Source: a phage. From it: a stretch of 64,000 nt of DNA. Positions 15,558 to 26,356 of the stretch are shown here, in pieces (positions within the stretch are counted from its first letter, which is position 1; each line of letters begins with the position of its first letter). Location of the stretch: the sequence record PZ179883.1; one strand, 5' to 3'. The position numbers were made by a program, and so were the translations under genes. The notes below the pieces were generated by a model that was not told the origin of the DNA, did not search any database, and worked only from the letters and a program-made list of their open reading frames with translations.

Positions 15558-15925
15558 TTAAATTTAATGGCTTGAAGAAGACTAATAATTCTCAAGCGAC
15601 TTCCTTCATCTTTAACTGTAAAAGAAAGAGGGTCACCAGATTTCATAGTGATAGTGCATTCAAAAGCAAAACCTTCGGGAACTTCTTCGAAGAAGTCAAA
15701 TTCTTCATCATAAATTAGAACATTACTCTGAAAACTGTGAAGAATTTTTCCGTCATTTCCAGATGCTGTACTAATCATTGTAACATTATTACCTTTCATA
15801 TCTTCAACGATAAATTCGCTTGTAGATATTACAGCATTAATAGAACCATTCCTATAAATAGCAGAAAATAGATATTTCTTTTCTTCACCTTCGCGAATGC
15901 GATATTTCTTACCGATTTTAAACAT
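15554..15925 (-). CDS. Hypothetical protein (123 aa)
   Basis: ORF in 39-motB interval. Confidence 0.55.
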   Translation of the reverse strand: MFKIGKKYRIREGEEKKYLFSAIYRNGSINAVISTSEFIVEDMKGNNVTMISTASGNDGKILHSFQSNVLIYDEEFDFFEEVPEGFAFECTITMKSGDPLSFTVKDEGSRLRIISLLQAIKFK

Positions 15926-15927
15926 AA

Positions 15928-16104
15928 TTACCCTTTAAGTAAGTCGTAAAATCCGCCATTCACATGCTTAGGGGCAGAGACTAACCGAATAGCAATCCGA
16001 TGACAATCAGGACATACATCAGTATCTCTTTCAGAAATTTTCTTGATTTTTTCGTATTCTTTTGCGCAGTCTTTTGATTGACATTTATAATCATAAAGCG
16101 GCAT
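15928..16104 (-). CDS. Small zinc-ribbon protein (58 aa), not in ORF track
   Basis: Manual translation MPLYDYKCQSKDCAKEYEKIKKISERDTDVCPDCHRIAIRLVSAPK...; CxxC-x17-CxxC. Confidence 0.4.
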   Translation of the reverse strand: MPLYDYKCQSKDCAKEYEKIKKISERDTDVCPDCHRIAIRLVSAPKHVNGGFYDLLKG

Positions 16105-16106
16105 AA

Positions 16107-16520
16107 TTATTCCTTAAAGTGAGCTTTCAACATCTGATACAAGGACCATGCCTGTTCATCATTTTCAATAGTAACTTTCATTACAGGGAATTTAGATTGA
16201 TCAGTTATCGGTGCAGATTCTTCCTGCTCTTCAGCTGCCTGGTATGGATTTTCAACTTCATTAAAGAATTCAGCTTCATTCGATGAAAGCCAAATAAAAT
16301 CTTCATCCAAAATATCTTTACCAGAAGATAGTACTAAATTTCCAGCAAATGACATAATTTTAATAGGACGCCCAAGAGCATCCACATCTAAAATTTTAAA
16401 AGGATGCATACCTAAACGGCGTGCATAGATTCCGTTATCAGTATGGTCTTTAATAAAATTTTCTTGAGCTTGTTTATTTTTAAATTGATACCATTTATTA
16501 ACTTCAAATTTAATAGCCAT
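16107..16520 (-). CDS. Hypothetical protein (137 aa), goF position
   Basis: Position and size roughly match T4 goF; identity not verified. Confidence 0.5.
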
Positions 16521-23745: not shown

Positions 23746-24216
23746 CTAGCGATAAAAACCAAATTGACGATTAGCTTCAATAATCTTTCTTTCTTCTTCG
23801 GACATTCTCCAGCGTAGTCCAACGTCAAAATGAGCCCAGACCATCTTAACAAATGCATTTATATCTTTAATATCTTCAATAATGAATGTTTTACTTTTCG
23901 AAGGTTGACTCGCTAATTTAACTTTATCATCTTCAAACAGGTCAAAAAGACCATATTCATGAGCTCTTTTATAGCCTTTAATAGTTAAAGCTTCAGAAGA
24001 AGAAAATGGTGAATCAGTATTCTGCAAAATATCTTCAGTATGTTTTATAATTAGAATAACATTTTCTGGATATTTTCTTTCTTTTATATCTTTAATTAAA
24101 ATATCCGGATTTTCTGCTAAAGGAATAATTAATGAGCACTCTTTATCAAGTGTATTTACTGATTTACCTTCTTTAGACATAAATTTTATTGAATAATGTT
24201 TTGCTACTTCAATCAT
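23746..24216 (-). CDS. Hypothetical protein (156 aa)
   Basis: ORF in the soc-modB interval (mrh/srh region of T4). Confidence 0.55.
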
Positions 24217-24373
24217 GTGATTTCCTCTTGCCTACTAACGGGCCGTCAGGAATTTTGTTTTCCTGGATATATTTCTCATTTTCTTCCATCATTTTACTAC
24301 CGATTTTAAGAAGCAAATCCAATGCTTCATTTGCTTTAGCCTTGGCCTCTTCTAGCGTCATATCTCTGTTCAT
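24209..24373 (-). CDS. Small hypothetical protein (54 aa), not in ORF track
   Basis: Manual translation [54 protein letters not shown]; overlaps both neighbours. Confidence 0.3.
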
Positions 24374-24573
24374 GATTTATCCCCATAGATGTCTCTCATC
24401 AATTTAAGTACTGAGCGTTCTAATTTCTTTTCTTTCTCAGCACTAATCATTGATTTCATCCATTCTTCCGATTCGTTCTGCATTTCTTTATTTGCTTGTT
24501 CAACCCAACCATCATCAATGTACATTGAGTTTGGTCTATTGAACCATTCAAACATTTTCTTCAGAACTTTCAT
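24370..24573 (-). CDS. Hypothetical protein (67 aa)
   Basis: ORF. Confidence 0.5.
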
Positions 24574-25045
24574 TTGTTTTACCTAAAACGACAGTAGAAG
24601 CATCGTCAAATTCATGAATTTTTAGCAAATTTGGATGTAAACTATTCCATACAGAAGAAATAAAATATGATAAAGCGTCTTCACTCGCAATTATAAATTT
24701 ATTTCCTTTATCTATTTTCCAACTATATAATGAATCGTACGAATAGAAAGATAAAGGTTTATCATTATATTGTTCTGCGCTAACATTAATGTATTCGGAT
24801 TTAGTAAATGCTTCAATTGCTCTAAATGGAATATTTGGTACAGTTTCAATAATTCCGATCTTTTTAAGTTTTATTTCAGCATCTTCTGGAACTGGCATTG
24901 AAACGAAATTTTCTACGAGATACATTGGGTCACAATAACCCTTATCAATCATTACTGCTACGGTAATTGGAACATCTTTAGCAAATGACATGCTATTACT
25001 GCTAATATACATTTCAAACAAAATCGCTTCCATAATTTTCCTCAA
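24548..25045 (-). CDS. Hypothetical protein (165 aa)
   Basis: ORF. Confidence 0.55.
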
Positions 25046-25380
25046 TCACAAGATGTAGATGAACAGCTAGAATCACAAGAACTTCCACATGAATCGCCCG
25101 TCCACACATGAACAGGAACATTAGTATCATATGAATCAGAACTAGACTGTGTATTCTGCGTATTAGATGATGTAGGTGTTGACCAACGCCAAGGATTTTT
25201 ATAATATTCCTGGGCTTCTTCATAAGTCATAGTAACTGCTTCTACTGTTCCATCTCCCATATAAACATATTCAACTACAGTTAAAGGAAGGTAGTCATTT
25301 GAAATAGGAACTACACCTTCTCCGGGAGTTGTAGAGAAAAAATCCGTAAAGAAACTTTTAAACCAATTAAAGATAAACAT
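25042..25380 (-). CDS. Cys/Ser-rich small protein with N-terminal hydrophobic segment (112 aa)
   Basis: ORF-track ORF trimmed to the ATG at 25380 (TAATG coupling to upstream ORF); C-terminus [18 protein letters not shown]. Confidence 0.5.
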
Positions 25381-25592
25381 TACAAAAAGCCTCTTTGAAA
25401 TTCGACTCTTTGAAATCCACCCCAATCAGTGTATCGCATTTCAGCATTGAACTCGACTGAACCATCTGCATGCATCATGAATGAATGCGTGACGATATCA
25501 CAATCCCAGCTTTTCATACCCCATTTATCAGAGATAGCTTTATCAAGAACCTTCTGGAGGTCTTCATTTGGTTTAATCCAGCGATTTAACAT
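25380..25592 (-). CDS. Hypothetical protein (70 aa)
   Basis: ORF immediately downstream of an early promoter. Confidence 0.5.
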   Translation of the reverse strand: MLNRWIKPNEDLQKVLDKAISDKWGMKSWDCDIVTHSFMMHADGSVEFNAEMRYTDWGGFQRVEFQRGFL

Positions 25593-25614: not shown

Positions 25615-25650
25615 TTTTATTATACCATACTCATTTTGGAAAGTAAACCG
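25615..25650 (-). promoter_or_regulatory. T4-type early promoter
   Basis: GTTTAC (rc 25643-25648) and a perfect TGGTATAAT (rc 25617-25627). Confidence 0.6.
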
Positions 25651-25662
25651 GTAAAATGAAAA

Positions 25663-25684
25663 AAGGACTCCCGAAGGAGTCCTT
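25663..25684 (-). terminator. Rho-independent terminator downstream of soc
   Basis: Stem AAGGACTCC / GGAGTCCTT with CGAA loop, then U-run on - strand. Confidence 0.65.
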
Positions 25685-25934: not shown

Positions 25935-25963
25935 GTAATTCTCCTTTATTTAAATTACATGAC

Positions 25964-25971
25964 TATTTATA
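25964..25971 (-). promoter_or_regulatory. T4 late promoter TATAAATA upstream of soc
   Basis: Exact TATAAATA on - strand about 30 nt upstream of the soc ATG. Confidence 0.6.
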
Positions 25972-26155
25972 ATAAATTCTTGCGGAACGTTAAAATACCC
26001 AATTTTAGTTAATATAACAACATCACCGTTAATAATTACCGGAGAATAATCGGCTGGAGCATTAAACTTCCAATGAGCTCTAATATTATATCCATCAGAA
26101 CCAAATGCTCAACTAGCCGGTCTCCCGGCTTTTTGCCATGCATAAAAATCAAATT

Positions 26156-26356
26156 TCATTTTGAATGCTCTATAATTAATTTTAAGGCTTCTTCATGCAC
26201 CTTACCTAATTGTATATGTCCAGTTTTAATTGTGTAAGCTTTGTGGAGCTGATTAGATAGGAGCTCGTATGTGAGCTCCTTGTCATAATTTTTAAATAGC
26301 TGGTCAATACGTTTCTTGTGGGCTTTCTTAAGTTGACGTTTATTTAAACGAGCCAT
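26156..26356 (-). CDS. Hypothetical basic protein (66 aa)
   Basis: ORF between 56 and soc. Confidence 0.5.
   Translation of the reverse strand: MARLNKRQLKKAHKKRIDQLFKNYDKELTYELLSNQLHKAYTIKTGHIQLGKVHEEALKLIIEHSK

Follow-up and report, generated by a model that had tools for sequence, protein, structure and literature searches.

In the 64,000-nucleotide stretch of phage sequence record PZ179883.1 (the window, by which we mean this whole stretch), the minus-strand open reading frame (ORF) at 25042..25380 is orthologous to mrh.1 of phage T4 (T4p027, NP_049642, UniProt P20706), an early-transcribed, selectively maintained and dispensable accessory gene. The gene had been catalogued beforehand; what this analysis has worked out is its family-wide signature. 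About half of the T4 genes are still without a function, mrh.1 included. The signature, which combines a most likely cytoplasmic protein, a terminal helix shared with Srh, a predicted disordered acidic arm and an invariant second-to-last Cys, gives targets for point mutants and assays in a gene that so far has only a name. From this anatomy we propose, with a probability of about 0.4, that Mrh.1 may be a cytoplasmic host-takeover accessory protein which would dock through its helix and act through an arm carrying a thiol pair. The coding sequence and the successive parts of its product are the following.

25042..25380, minus strand: mrh.1 coding sequence, 112 amino acids, TGA stop at 25042-25044 (from the ORF list and its translation)
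25336..25380, minus strand: aromatic, predicted amphipathic N-terminal helix, residues 1-15 (helix 4-14 in the AlphaFold2 model)
25306..25326, minus strand: PGEGVVP motif, residues 19-25, invariant in the closer relatives, with P19 and P25 kept in at least 90% of 27 diverse members
25198..25281, minus strand: beta-hairpin and short helix, residues 34-61, the sole confidently predicted fold (predicted local distance difference test score, pLDDT, ~80-86)
25105..25197, minus strand: Ser/Thr/Gln-rich variable linker, residues 62-92, predicted to be disordered (pLDDT <50)
25045..25104, minus strand: acidic Ser-rich C-terminal arm, residues 93-112, with Cys 98, 102, 106 and 111 and a Cys-Asp end

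Identity and conservation of mrh.1

The window protein has a mass of 12.5 kDa and is acidic, with an isoelectric point of 4.05. The Pfam family DUF7206 (PF23836) matches its residues 3-112 along the entire profile (positions 1-107 of 107), scoring 98.9 bits where the gathering score is 25.6 (E=3.3e-28), and phrog_2031 matches with E=1.5e-33. T4 Mrh.1 and the window protein differ by one extra Thr and by T94A and are otherwise identical; in the T4 locus mrh.1 likewise lies between mrh.2 and mrh, and the matches to the family models run from one end to the other. T4, RB14, RB32, RB51 and ime09 all have this ORF annotated as mrh.1, 'hypothetical protein'. Over the 801 bases queried around the ORF, identity is 99.9% with Escherichia phage a51 and 99.4% with HP3; the window phage is of the T4 type and is nearer to these two than to T4 itself. 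The signature of the family has W-x-K in the N-terminal helix, Y-x-G-D-G in the hairpin and S-C-D at the C-terminus, and the window protein has all the residues concerned, namely W6, K8, Y40, G42, D43, G44, E47, C111 and D112.

An earlier note on this DNA, made from the letters alone, had delimited the ORF correctly: its coordinates, its strand and its length of 112 amino acids counted from the ATG are exact. We discarded a longer, 127-amino-acid version starting at an upstream TTG (25425), as in every relative the protein begins with the Met overlapping the stop codon of mrh.2, which is also the start annotated in T4. The note also knew of no T4 function for such a protein; in agreement with this, T4 mrh.1 carries the annotation 'hypothetical protein', and our literature search on the gene, family and accession names found no study characterising the protein.

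When 50,697 phage records were searched in translation, 502 proved to contain Mrh.1, always with at least 80% identity. Coverage reaches at least 80% of the query in 476 of these 502 matches, and in the matches listed the tail past residue 93, which is of low complexity, is left unaligned. More distant members occur in RB69-like, Mosigvirus-like and Karam-like phages, in Citrobacter phage CF1, in phages of Klebsiella and Enterobacter and in T4-like phages of Serratia and Cronobacter. Of 1.84 billion cluster representatives searched exhaustively with a profile, only 28 matched at E<1e-3, all of the same architecture. The ORF is therefore genuine and conserved among T-even phages that infect enterobacteria, in more than 500 phage genomes, and the refutation envisaged in the earlier note, an ORF missing or disrupted in relatives, fails.

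When four matches of partial coverage were fetched, two proved to be frameshifted and two intact, one of the intact copies having a GTG start. The frameshifted copies belong to TadeuszReichstein (BASEL Bas43, L029) and ERS-1 (L030), with the shift near codon 38 in one and near codon 59 in the other; these may be real mutations or sequencing errors.

The match to the family is far above chance, and mrh.1 is a real gene under purifying selection. We computed the ratio of nonsynonymous to synonymous substitutions (dN/dS) by the Nei-Gojobori method in seven Tequatroviruses and in a second set of eight RB69-like and related phages. Among the Tequatroviruses the ratio is 0.18 for the whole gene, with 0.05 in the first 60 codons, 0.29 in the linker and 0.17 in the last 20 codons; in the second set it is 0.17 overall and 0.04 in the last 20 codons. 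Is this constraint on the last codons exerted on the protein? The C-terminal Cys and Asp use both of their synonymous codons, Ser uses TCN as well as AGY codons, and the sequence 3' of the mrh.1 stop differs among genera. With synonymous variation in these two terminal codons and different sequence behind them, we rejected overlapping translation signals as the cause of the conservation, and for the same reasons conclude that this low-complexity tail is constrained as protein.

The C-terminal arm

The earlier note had described a Cys/Ser-rich tail with five Cys in 18 residues. The clustering in the last 18 residues stands, but the Cys number four (98, 102, 106 and 111), not five. Each of them is preceded by Ser, their spacing is C-x3-C-x3-C-x4-C, and they are all the Cys of the protein; four residues scattered at random over the 112 positions would all land among the last 15 with a probability of C(15,4)/C(112,4) = 2.2e-4.

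The pattern common to the family was counted at C-terminal positions in 40 unique full-length members. All of them (40/40) have Cys as the second-to-last residue, and 39/40 end in Asp, the one exception ending in Asn. A second Cys, usually within S-C-D-S, stands at -8 to -13, that is 6-11 residues upstream of the first, across a variable spacer of 5-10 residues. Lys and Arg are absent from the last 30 residues in all 40 members, the tail being composed of Cys, Ser, Asp, Gly and Tyr. Four Cys are found in the T4 clade alone, and its two extra ones replace Tyr (S-S-Y-D-S versus S-S-C-D-S). In the AlphaFold2 model residues 71-112 have a pLDDT below 50, so that the tail is predicted to be disordered. 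As read from these sequences, the conserved feature of the tail is thus a thiol pair on a putatively flexible acidic arm ending in Cys-Asp-COOH, and not a five-Cys array.

What could such an arm do? Metal binding, which the earlier note had put forward, is possible. The Cys pattern is not that of metallothioneins or zinc ribbons, which have many conserved Cys in C-x-C or C-x-x-C arrays (two CxxC pairs in the zinc ribbons), as only two Cys are kept family-wide, and a Pfam metal-binding domain was not found in Mrh.1. A metal site shared with the product of the neighbouring gene, Mrh.2, was considered and rejected, as the single Cys of Mrh.2 (in WDCD) is not kept in relatives.

The tail could, on the other hand, be a disordered acidic docking peptide or a solubilising bristle, recognised through a C-terminal carboxylate motif and with Cys that would have no chemistry to perform. 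Its composition of Ser, Asp, Gly and Tyr is typical of flexible binding segments, and both the exchange of Tyr and Cys between clades and the varying length of the spacer would suit such a role. However, among all the positions of the tail only that of the Cys at -2 is strictly invariant in the 40 members, and this argues for a specific need for the thiol. We therefore consider a tail without thiol chemistry to be rather unlikely.

The thiol pair recalls another kind of arm. A redox or sulfur-carrying 'swinging arm', whose Cys pair would take and give a persulfide or form a reversible disulfide, might feed on, or block, a host sulfur-relay enzyme or one that depends on thioredoxin or glutaredoxin. 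The Cys at -2 in all members and the second Cys 6-11 residues upstream, across a disordered Ser/Gly spacer, would fit this scheme, and the layout is like that of DsrC, whose flexible C-terminus carries a strictly conserved second-to-last Cys111 with Cys100 eleven residues upstream (PMC3397948). The likeness of Mrh.1 to DsrC/TusE, a conserved second-to-last Cys on a flexible arm with a second Cys ~10 residues upstream, is one of layout only: there is no relation in sequence or fold, the arm of Mrh.1 is rich in Ser and Asp, with Asp as its last residue, and a DsrC-type globular domain is lacking, no match to TusE/DsrC (TIGR03342) being found in an NCBIfam scan at E up to 1. Ribonucleotide reductase R1 (NrdA) also has an acidic flexible C-terminus with a Cys pair within ~10 residues of the end, that of T4 NrdA reading ...ADDCAACKL. 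Its spacing and flanks differ nonetheless, and the NrdA tail serves an enzyme on the same chain, whereas Mrh.1 has no catalytic domain. At the level of sequence, homology of Mrh.1 to DsrC/TusE or to the NrdA tail is excluded by the family scans. Furthermore, the Cys of Mrh.1 have other flanking residues than the Cys of DsrC/TusE and R1, Tyr is what the extra Cys of the T4 clade replace, and no partner is known. Taken together, these points make a sulfur-carrying or redox arm improbable.

A Ser/Cys-rich C-terminus behind a conserved N-terminal part is also the overall shape of a precursor of ribosomally synthesised and post-translationally modified peptides, of the lanthipeptide or azole-like kind, in which the N-terminal part would be the leader and the tail the core. 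Residues 94-108 weakly match the core of TIGR04363, the FxLD lanthipeptide precursor (E=0.034), and this sub-threshold match is the only one that NCBIfam gives for Mrh.1. However, with 14.2 bits it falls far short of the cut-off of 30 and is a compositional match; dehydratase, cyclase, YcaO and radical-SAM maturase were not found in the neighbourhoods by annotation and Pfam; the core has no more than two conserved Cys; and 100-140 amino acids is long for such a precursor. A modified-peptide precursor is hence hardly credible.

The N-terminal helix and the cellular location

The N-terminal motif of the family is M-[IF]-x-[WF]-[LI]-K-x-[LF]-F, with W6 and K8 conserved, and in most relatives M-I-x-W-L-K-x-L-F stands alone and is followed by charged residues and Pro-Gly. 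The earlier note had seen here a hydrophobic N-terminus. An aromatic and hydrophobic motif is indeed present, but it is broken by K8 and D13 and forms neither a signal peptide nor a membrane-spanning segment. For the latter we looked for a 19-residue segment with a mean Kyte-Doolittle hydropathy of ~1.6 or more; the best such mean reaches 0.84 for the window protein and does not exceed 0.93 in any family member, so that no membrane-spanning segment is found by hydropathy in either. For a Sec signal we looked for a positive N-region leading into an unbroken hydrophobic core at least ~8 residues long, with a small-x-small cleavage site. By hydropathy and run length none is found in the window protein or in 29 family members: within the first 25 residues, the longest run made up of hydrophobic residues alone is 4 in the former and at most 5 in the latter. 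Both a membrane-spanning segment and a signal peptide at this end were ruled out on these hydropathy grounds.

These results bear on the location proposed in the earlier note, which implied that a signal peptide or membrane anchor would lead to export and to a tail forming disulfides or binding metal in the periplasm. An N-terminus rich in aromatic hydrophobics and a cluster of four Cys would suit export, and T4 does encode small exported early proteins, for example Spackle (Pfam T4_Spackle is present in related loci). However, K8 and D13 interrupt the stretch, and the relatives have only ~9 residues before the charged Pro-Gly-Glu-Gly motif. Moreover, the hydropathy maximum and the hydrophobic runs of the family stay low, a positive leader followed by a hydrophobic core is lacking, as is an Ala-x-Ala-type cleavage site, and only two of the Cys are conserved. 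Export is in our view very unlikely. The periplasmic location finds no support in any family member, and periplasmic disulfides are unlikely because a cytoplasmic protein would hold its thiols reduced. The N-terminal sequences argue that Mrh.1 most likely stays in the cytoplasm.

Across most of the family the N-terminal helix has a hydrophobic moment of 0.5-0.8 and a HeliQuest D of 0.8-1.7, values which overlap those of the membrane-targeting helices of MinD, FtsA, MreB and SepF. Such targeting helices are 8-15 residues long and have a high hydrophobic moment and a net positive charge. In those proteins too, the helix is short and terminal and opposes an aromatic or aliphatic face to one with Lys, the moments being comparable, and the family starts MIQWLKNFFK or MIKWLKSLF may be set beside FLKRLF in MinD and KLKNFF in SepF. 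They have no homology to Mrh.1, and the helix of the T4 clade is more aromatic and nearly uncharged. In the window protein D is 0.83 over 11 residues and 0.44 over 15, with a net charge of 0 to +1. By its sequence this helix could equally dock on a protein as on a membrane.

The first 13 columns of the Mrh.1 family align with the start of the Srh family, M-K-P-L-S-W-L-K-D-W-L (hhalign P=7e-4, probability 26%). We noted that Srh (srh, 24370..24573, minus strand) and Mrh.1 have in common the motif M..W-[LI]-K-x-hydrophobic-hydrophobic, followed by Pro-Gly, and that small ORFs of the soc-to-mod cluster in distant T-even phages (L025:2783-2998 and L019:2349-2774) have a similar 'NPLPWIK.W' motif. 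A scan of the window found no other protein with a Cys-Asp end or with the Mrh.1 N-terminal motif. The alignment with Srh suggests that the two N-termini may be a shared docking or targeting module.

Phage lambda CIII, which acts in a host-takeover context tied to sigma-32 stability, inhibits FtsH through an amphipathic helix. Might Mrh.1 belong, with srh and mrh, to a sigma-32 heat-shock circuit, its helix being a decoy or inhibitor for a handler of sigma-32, for example the membrane protease FtsH or the chaperone DnaK? Its place beside srh and mrh is kept in all genera examined, it has its N-terminal motif in common with Srh, and both mrh and srh are annotated as sigma-32 modulators. Like Mrh.1, lambda CIII is a small early phage protein, and its activity needs the amphipathic helix; it has no sequence similarity to Mrh.1 and no Cys tail, and the link of Mrh.1 to sigma-32 comes from gene neighbourhood only. 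The argument is one of guilt by association, in T-even early clusters that mix unrelated functions; the 'decoy' role of Srh is itself postulated, in an annotation note, and the invariant C-terminal Cys-Asp would be left unexplained. A role in the sigma-32 circuit accordingly appears doubtful to us.

Core, linker and structure model

Behind the helix the family consensus reads (K/T)-P-G-E-G-[VM]-[VI]-P, and the hairpin that follows reads E-[YW]-[VI]-Y-[MV]-G-D-G-[MT]-[MV]-E-E-V, with Y40, G42, G44 and E47 invariant in 27 members. AlphaFold2 predicts a core of two strands (34-40 and 46-52) and a helix (53-61), with no structure from residue 62 on. The mean pLDDT was 53 with 8 sequences and 60 with 27, and the usable part of the model is confined to the hairpin and the helix. 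When viral models were searched for a similar fold, family members alone came up. The sole match among PDB profiles, 6ojn_A ('Major capsid protein', 463 residues, E=8e-4), is marginal and unrelated, and we set it aside as a low-complexity artefact.

The linker is Ser/Thr/Gln-rich, just as the earlier note had described it, and its length and sequence differ between genera. Many genera carry in it a module, A-G-N-V-G-x-G-A-L-P-L-N-S-K-K-L-K-E-H-L...D-T-T-P-I-V-V-A-A-A-V-S-S-W, which is lost from T4 and kept in a few Tequatroviruses with a 164-amino-acid Mrh.1. This long form was seen in Escherichia phage 235Ecol030PP (P0003) and in Yersinia phage fPS-90 (BFVD A0A449C3E1). The insert of the former is ~50 residues long (…AGNVGAGALPLNSKKLKEHLD…DTAPIITATAVSSW) and is homologous to the RB69-like middle module, which argues that the linker is a swappable module, lost in T4 proper.

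Published expression and fitness data

In a T4 time course mrh.1 RNA is classed as early (PMC9697503, supplementary file 4). In the proteome of the same time course Mrh.2, Mrh and Srh were detected and Mrh.1 was not (PMC9697503). The predicted tryptic peptides of Mrh.1 are of 8, 53, 4 and 47 residues; such peptides are hard to detect, and its non-detection is thus weak evidence. In the genome-wide CRISPRi-ART knock-down screen mrh.1 is scored 'Semi-fit', with a fitness of 0.79 against a threshold of 0.7 and a Kolmogorov-Smirnov P=0.069. The screen names only five T4 genes that are both Semi-fit and purely of unknown function, mrh.1 among them; its neighbours mrh.2, mrh, srh and soc are all Not fit (PMC11879866). 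According to a transposon-sequencing preprint, 31/31 TA sites of mrh.1 were hit and the gene is classed as non-essential, and one conditional comparison there shows no effect (bioRxiv 10.1101/2025.11.20.689424).

A proposed role in host takeover

The explanation we prefer, a cytoplasmic accessory protein with a docking helix and a thiol-pair arm, would run as follows. The N-terminal amphipathic helix would dock Mrh.1 either by lying flat against the inner side of the cytoplasmic membrane or by fitting into the hydrophobic groove of a partner. The tiny core of beta-hairpin and helix would probably fold only upon oligomerisation or partner binding. The last ~50 residues would form a disordered acidic Ser-rich arm presenting the thiol pair, made of the Cys-Asp at the C-terminus and of the second Ser-Cys-Asp 6-11 residues upstream, and doubled to four Cys in the T4 clade. 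Early in takeover this arm might chelate a metal ion (Zn, Fe or Cu) or make another thiol-dependent contact with a host target. Carrying mrh.1 would then give a slight fitness gain and be dispensable on laboratory Escherichia coli.

Nearly all the doubt in this explanation sits in its mechanistic part, the metal, membrane and partner roles being read from sequence anatomy, and several observations weigh against it. The structure model has a low overall confidence, with its mean pLDDT of 60. The charge and the D (0.44-0.83) of the window helix are below those of classical membrane-targeting helices. For a monomer, a pair of Cys whose spacer varies between 5 and 10 residues is a weak metal site, and the Tyr found in other clades at the positions of the extra Cys may mean that a moderately hydrophobic or nucleophilic side chain, rather than a thiol, suffices there. 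In addition, the protein went undetected in the T4 proteome time course, the Semi-fit call lacks statistical significance, and two sequenced phages have frameshifted copies of the gene.

A bolder version would make Mrh.1 a new kind of takeover effector, a 'thiol arm' tethered by its helix to the inner membrane or to a host complex, whose invariant penultimate Cys, borne on a long disordered acidic arm, would reach into a host enzyme. Sulfur, a metal or reducing equivalents would there be stolen, blocked or delivered, and the target might be the IscS-Tus relay for tRNA 2-thiouridine or a thioredoxin-dependent enzyme. If this were true, the motif common to Mrh.1 and Srh would mark a docking site used by several early cluster proteins. 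We regard this version as a long shot.

The operon and the neighbouring genes

The signals and neighbours that bear directly on mrh.1 expression lie just upstream of it.

25390..25395, minus strand: Shine-Dalgarno sequence AAGAGG of mrh.1, inside the mrh.2 3' end and 9 nucleotides upstream of the ATG (read from the sequence)
25380..25592, minus strand: mrh.2, 70 amino acids (phrog_1873, E=4e-31), its stop overlapping the mrh.1 start
25619..25647, minus strand: sigma-70-type (T4 early-type) promoter TTTACT-17-TATAAT with extended TG, 10/12 consensus matches
25663..25684, minus strand: intrinsic terminator hairpin with a 9-bp stem of which 5 pairs are G-C, followed by a T run, after soc and just upstream of the early promoter

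The mrh.1 ATG and the mrh.2 stop codon have one base in common (TAATG), and mrh.1 is translationally coupled to mrh.2, whose last codons provide its ribosome-binding site. The layout R-G-F-L-stop/ATG at the mrh.1 start is also found in distant relatives, and the mrh.1 TGA in turn sits within the Shine-Dalgarno sequence TGAGGAAA of the downstream gene mrh. The early-type promoter, a strong one, heads the unit mrh.2-mrh.1-mrh-srh.

Among the 24 related loci scanned for neighbours, mrh.1 lies downstream of gene 56 in all 24 and downstream of soc in every locus where soc was detected (23/24), and srh and/or mrh were detected downstream of it in 19. The gene order around mrh.1 is the same in T4 and HP3. 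In all Tequatrovirus and RB69-like loci examined mrh.2 is directly upstream, with overlapping stop and start; in distant genera an upstream ORF of similar size overlaps the mrh.1 start, and the homology of these ORFs (in L019 and L023) to mrh.2 is not significant.

Mrh.2 is in relatives only ~55% identical overall, with an invariant N-terminus MLNRWIKPN, an invariant C-terminal RGFL and a HSFMM…VEFNAE…R segment that is also kept. Pfam PF26878 is recorded for the mrh.2 homologues of two related loci (L002 and L004).

On the minus strand of the window the neighbours follow in the order dam, gene 56, a 66-amino-acid ORF, soc, mrh.2, mrh.1, mrh and srh, and beyond srh come modA.4, modA.3, modA.2 and then modB/modA. 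T4 has the homing-endonuclease gene segF (15606-16280) between soc and gene 56; it is not present there in the window, where its place (the 25935-26355 region) is taken by the 66-amino-acid ORF at 26156..26356, minus strand (phrog_5782, 'virion structural protein').

An alternative-frame ORF of 69 amino acids at 25014..25223, minus strand, overlaps the linker and tail codons of mrh.1. The frameshifted ERS-1 copy (P0006) runs into its frame, and we saw no sign that it is a gene of its own.

In HP3 (NC_041919) the modA.2 and modA.4 homologues (features 1144-1326 and 1810-1974) are labelled 'molybdenum ABC transporter' and 'periplasmic molybdenum-binding protein'. Such labels are implausible for products of 54-60 amino acids and probably reflect an error of annotation transfer.

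Finally, the cluster holds two Mrh-family genes, as the modA.3 homologue of the window (23746..24216, minus strand, 156 amino acids) is an mrh paralogue (phrog_1234, E=8e-53). A related locus (L004) also has two adjacent PF24070 genes.

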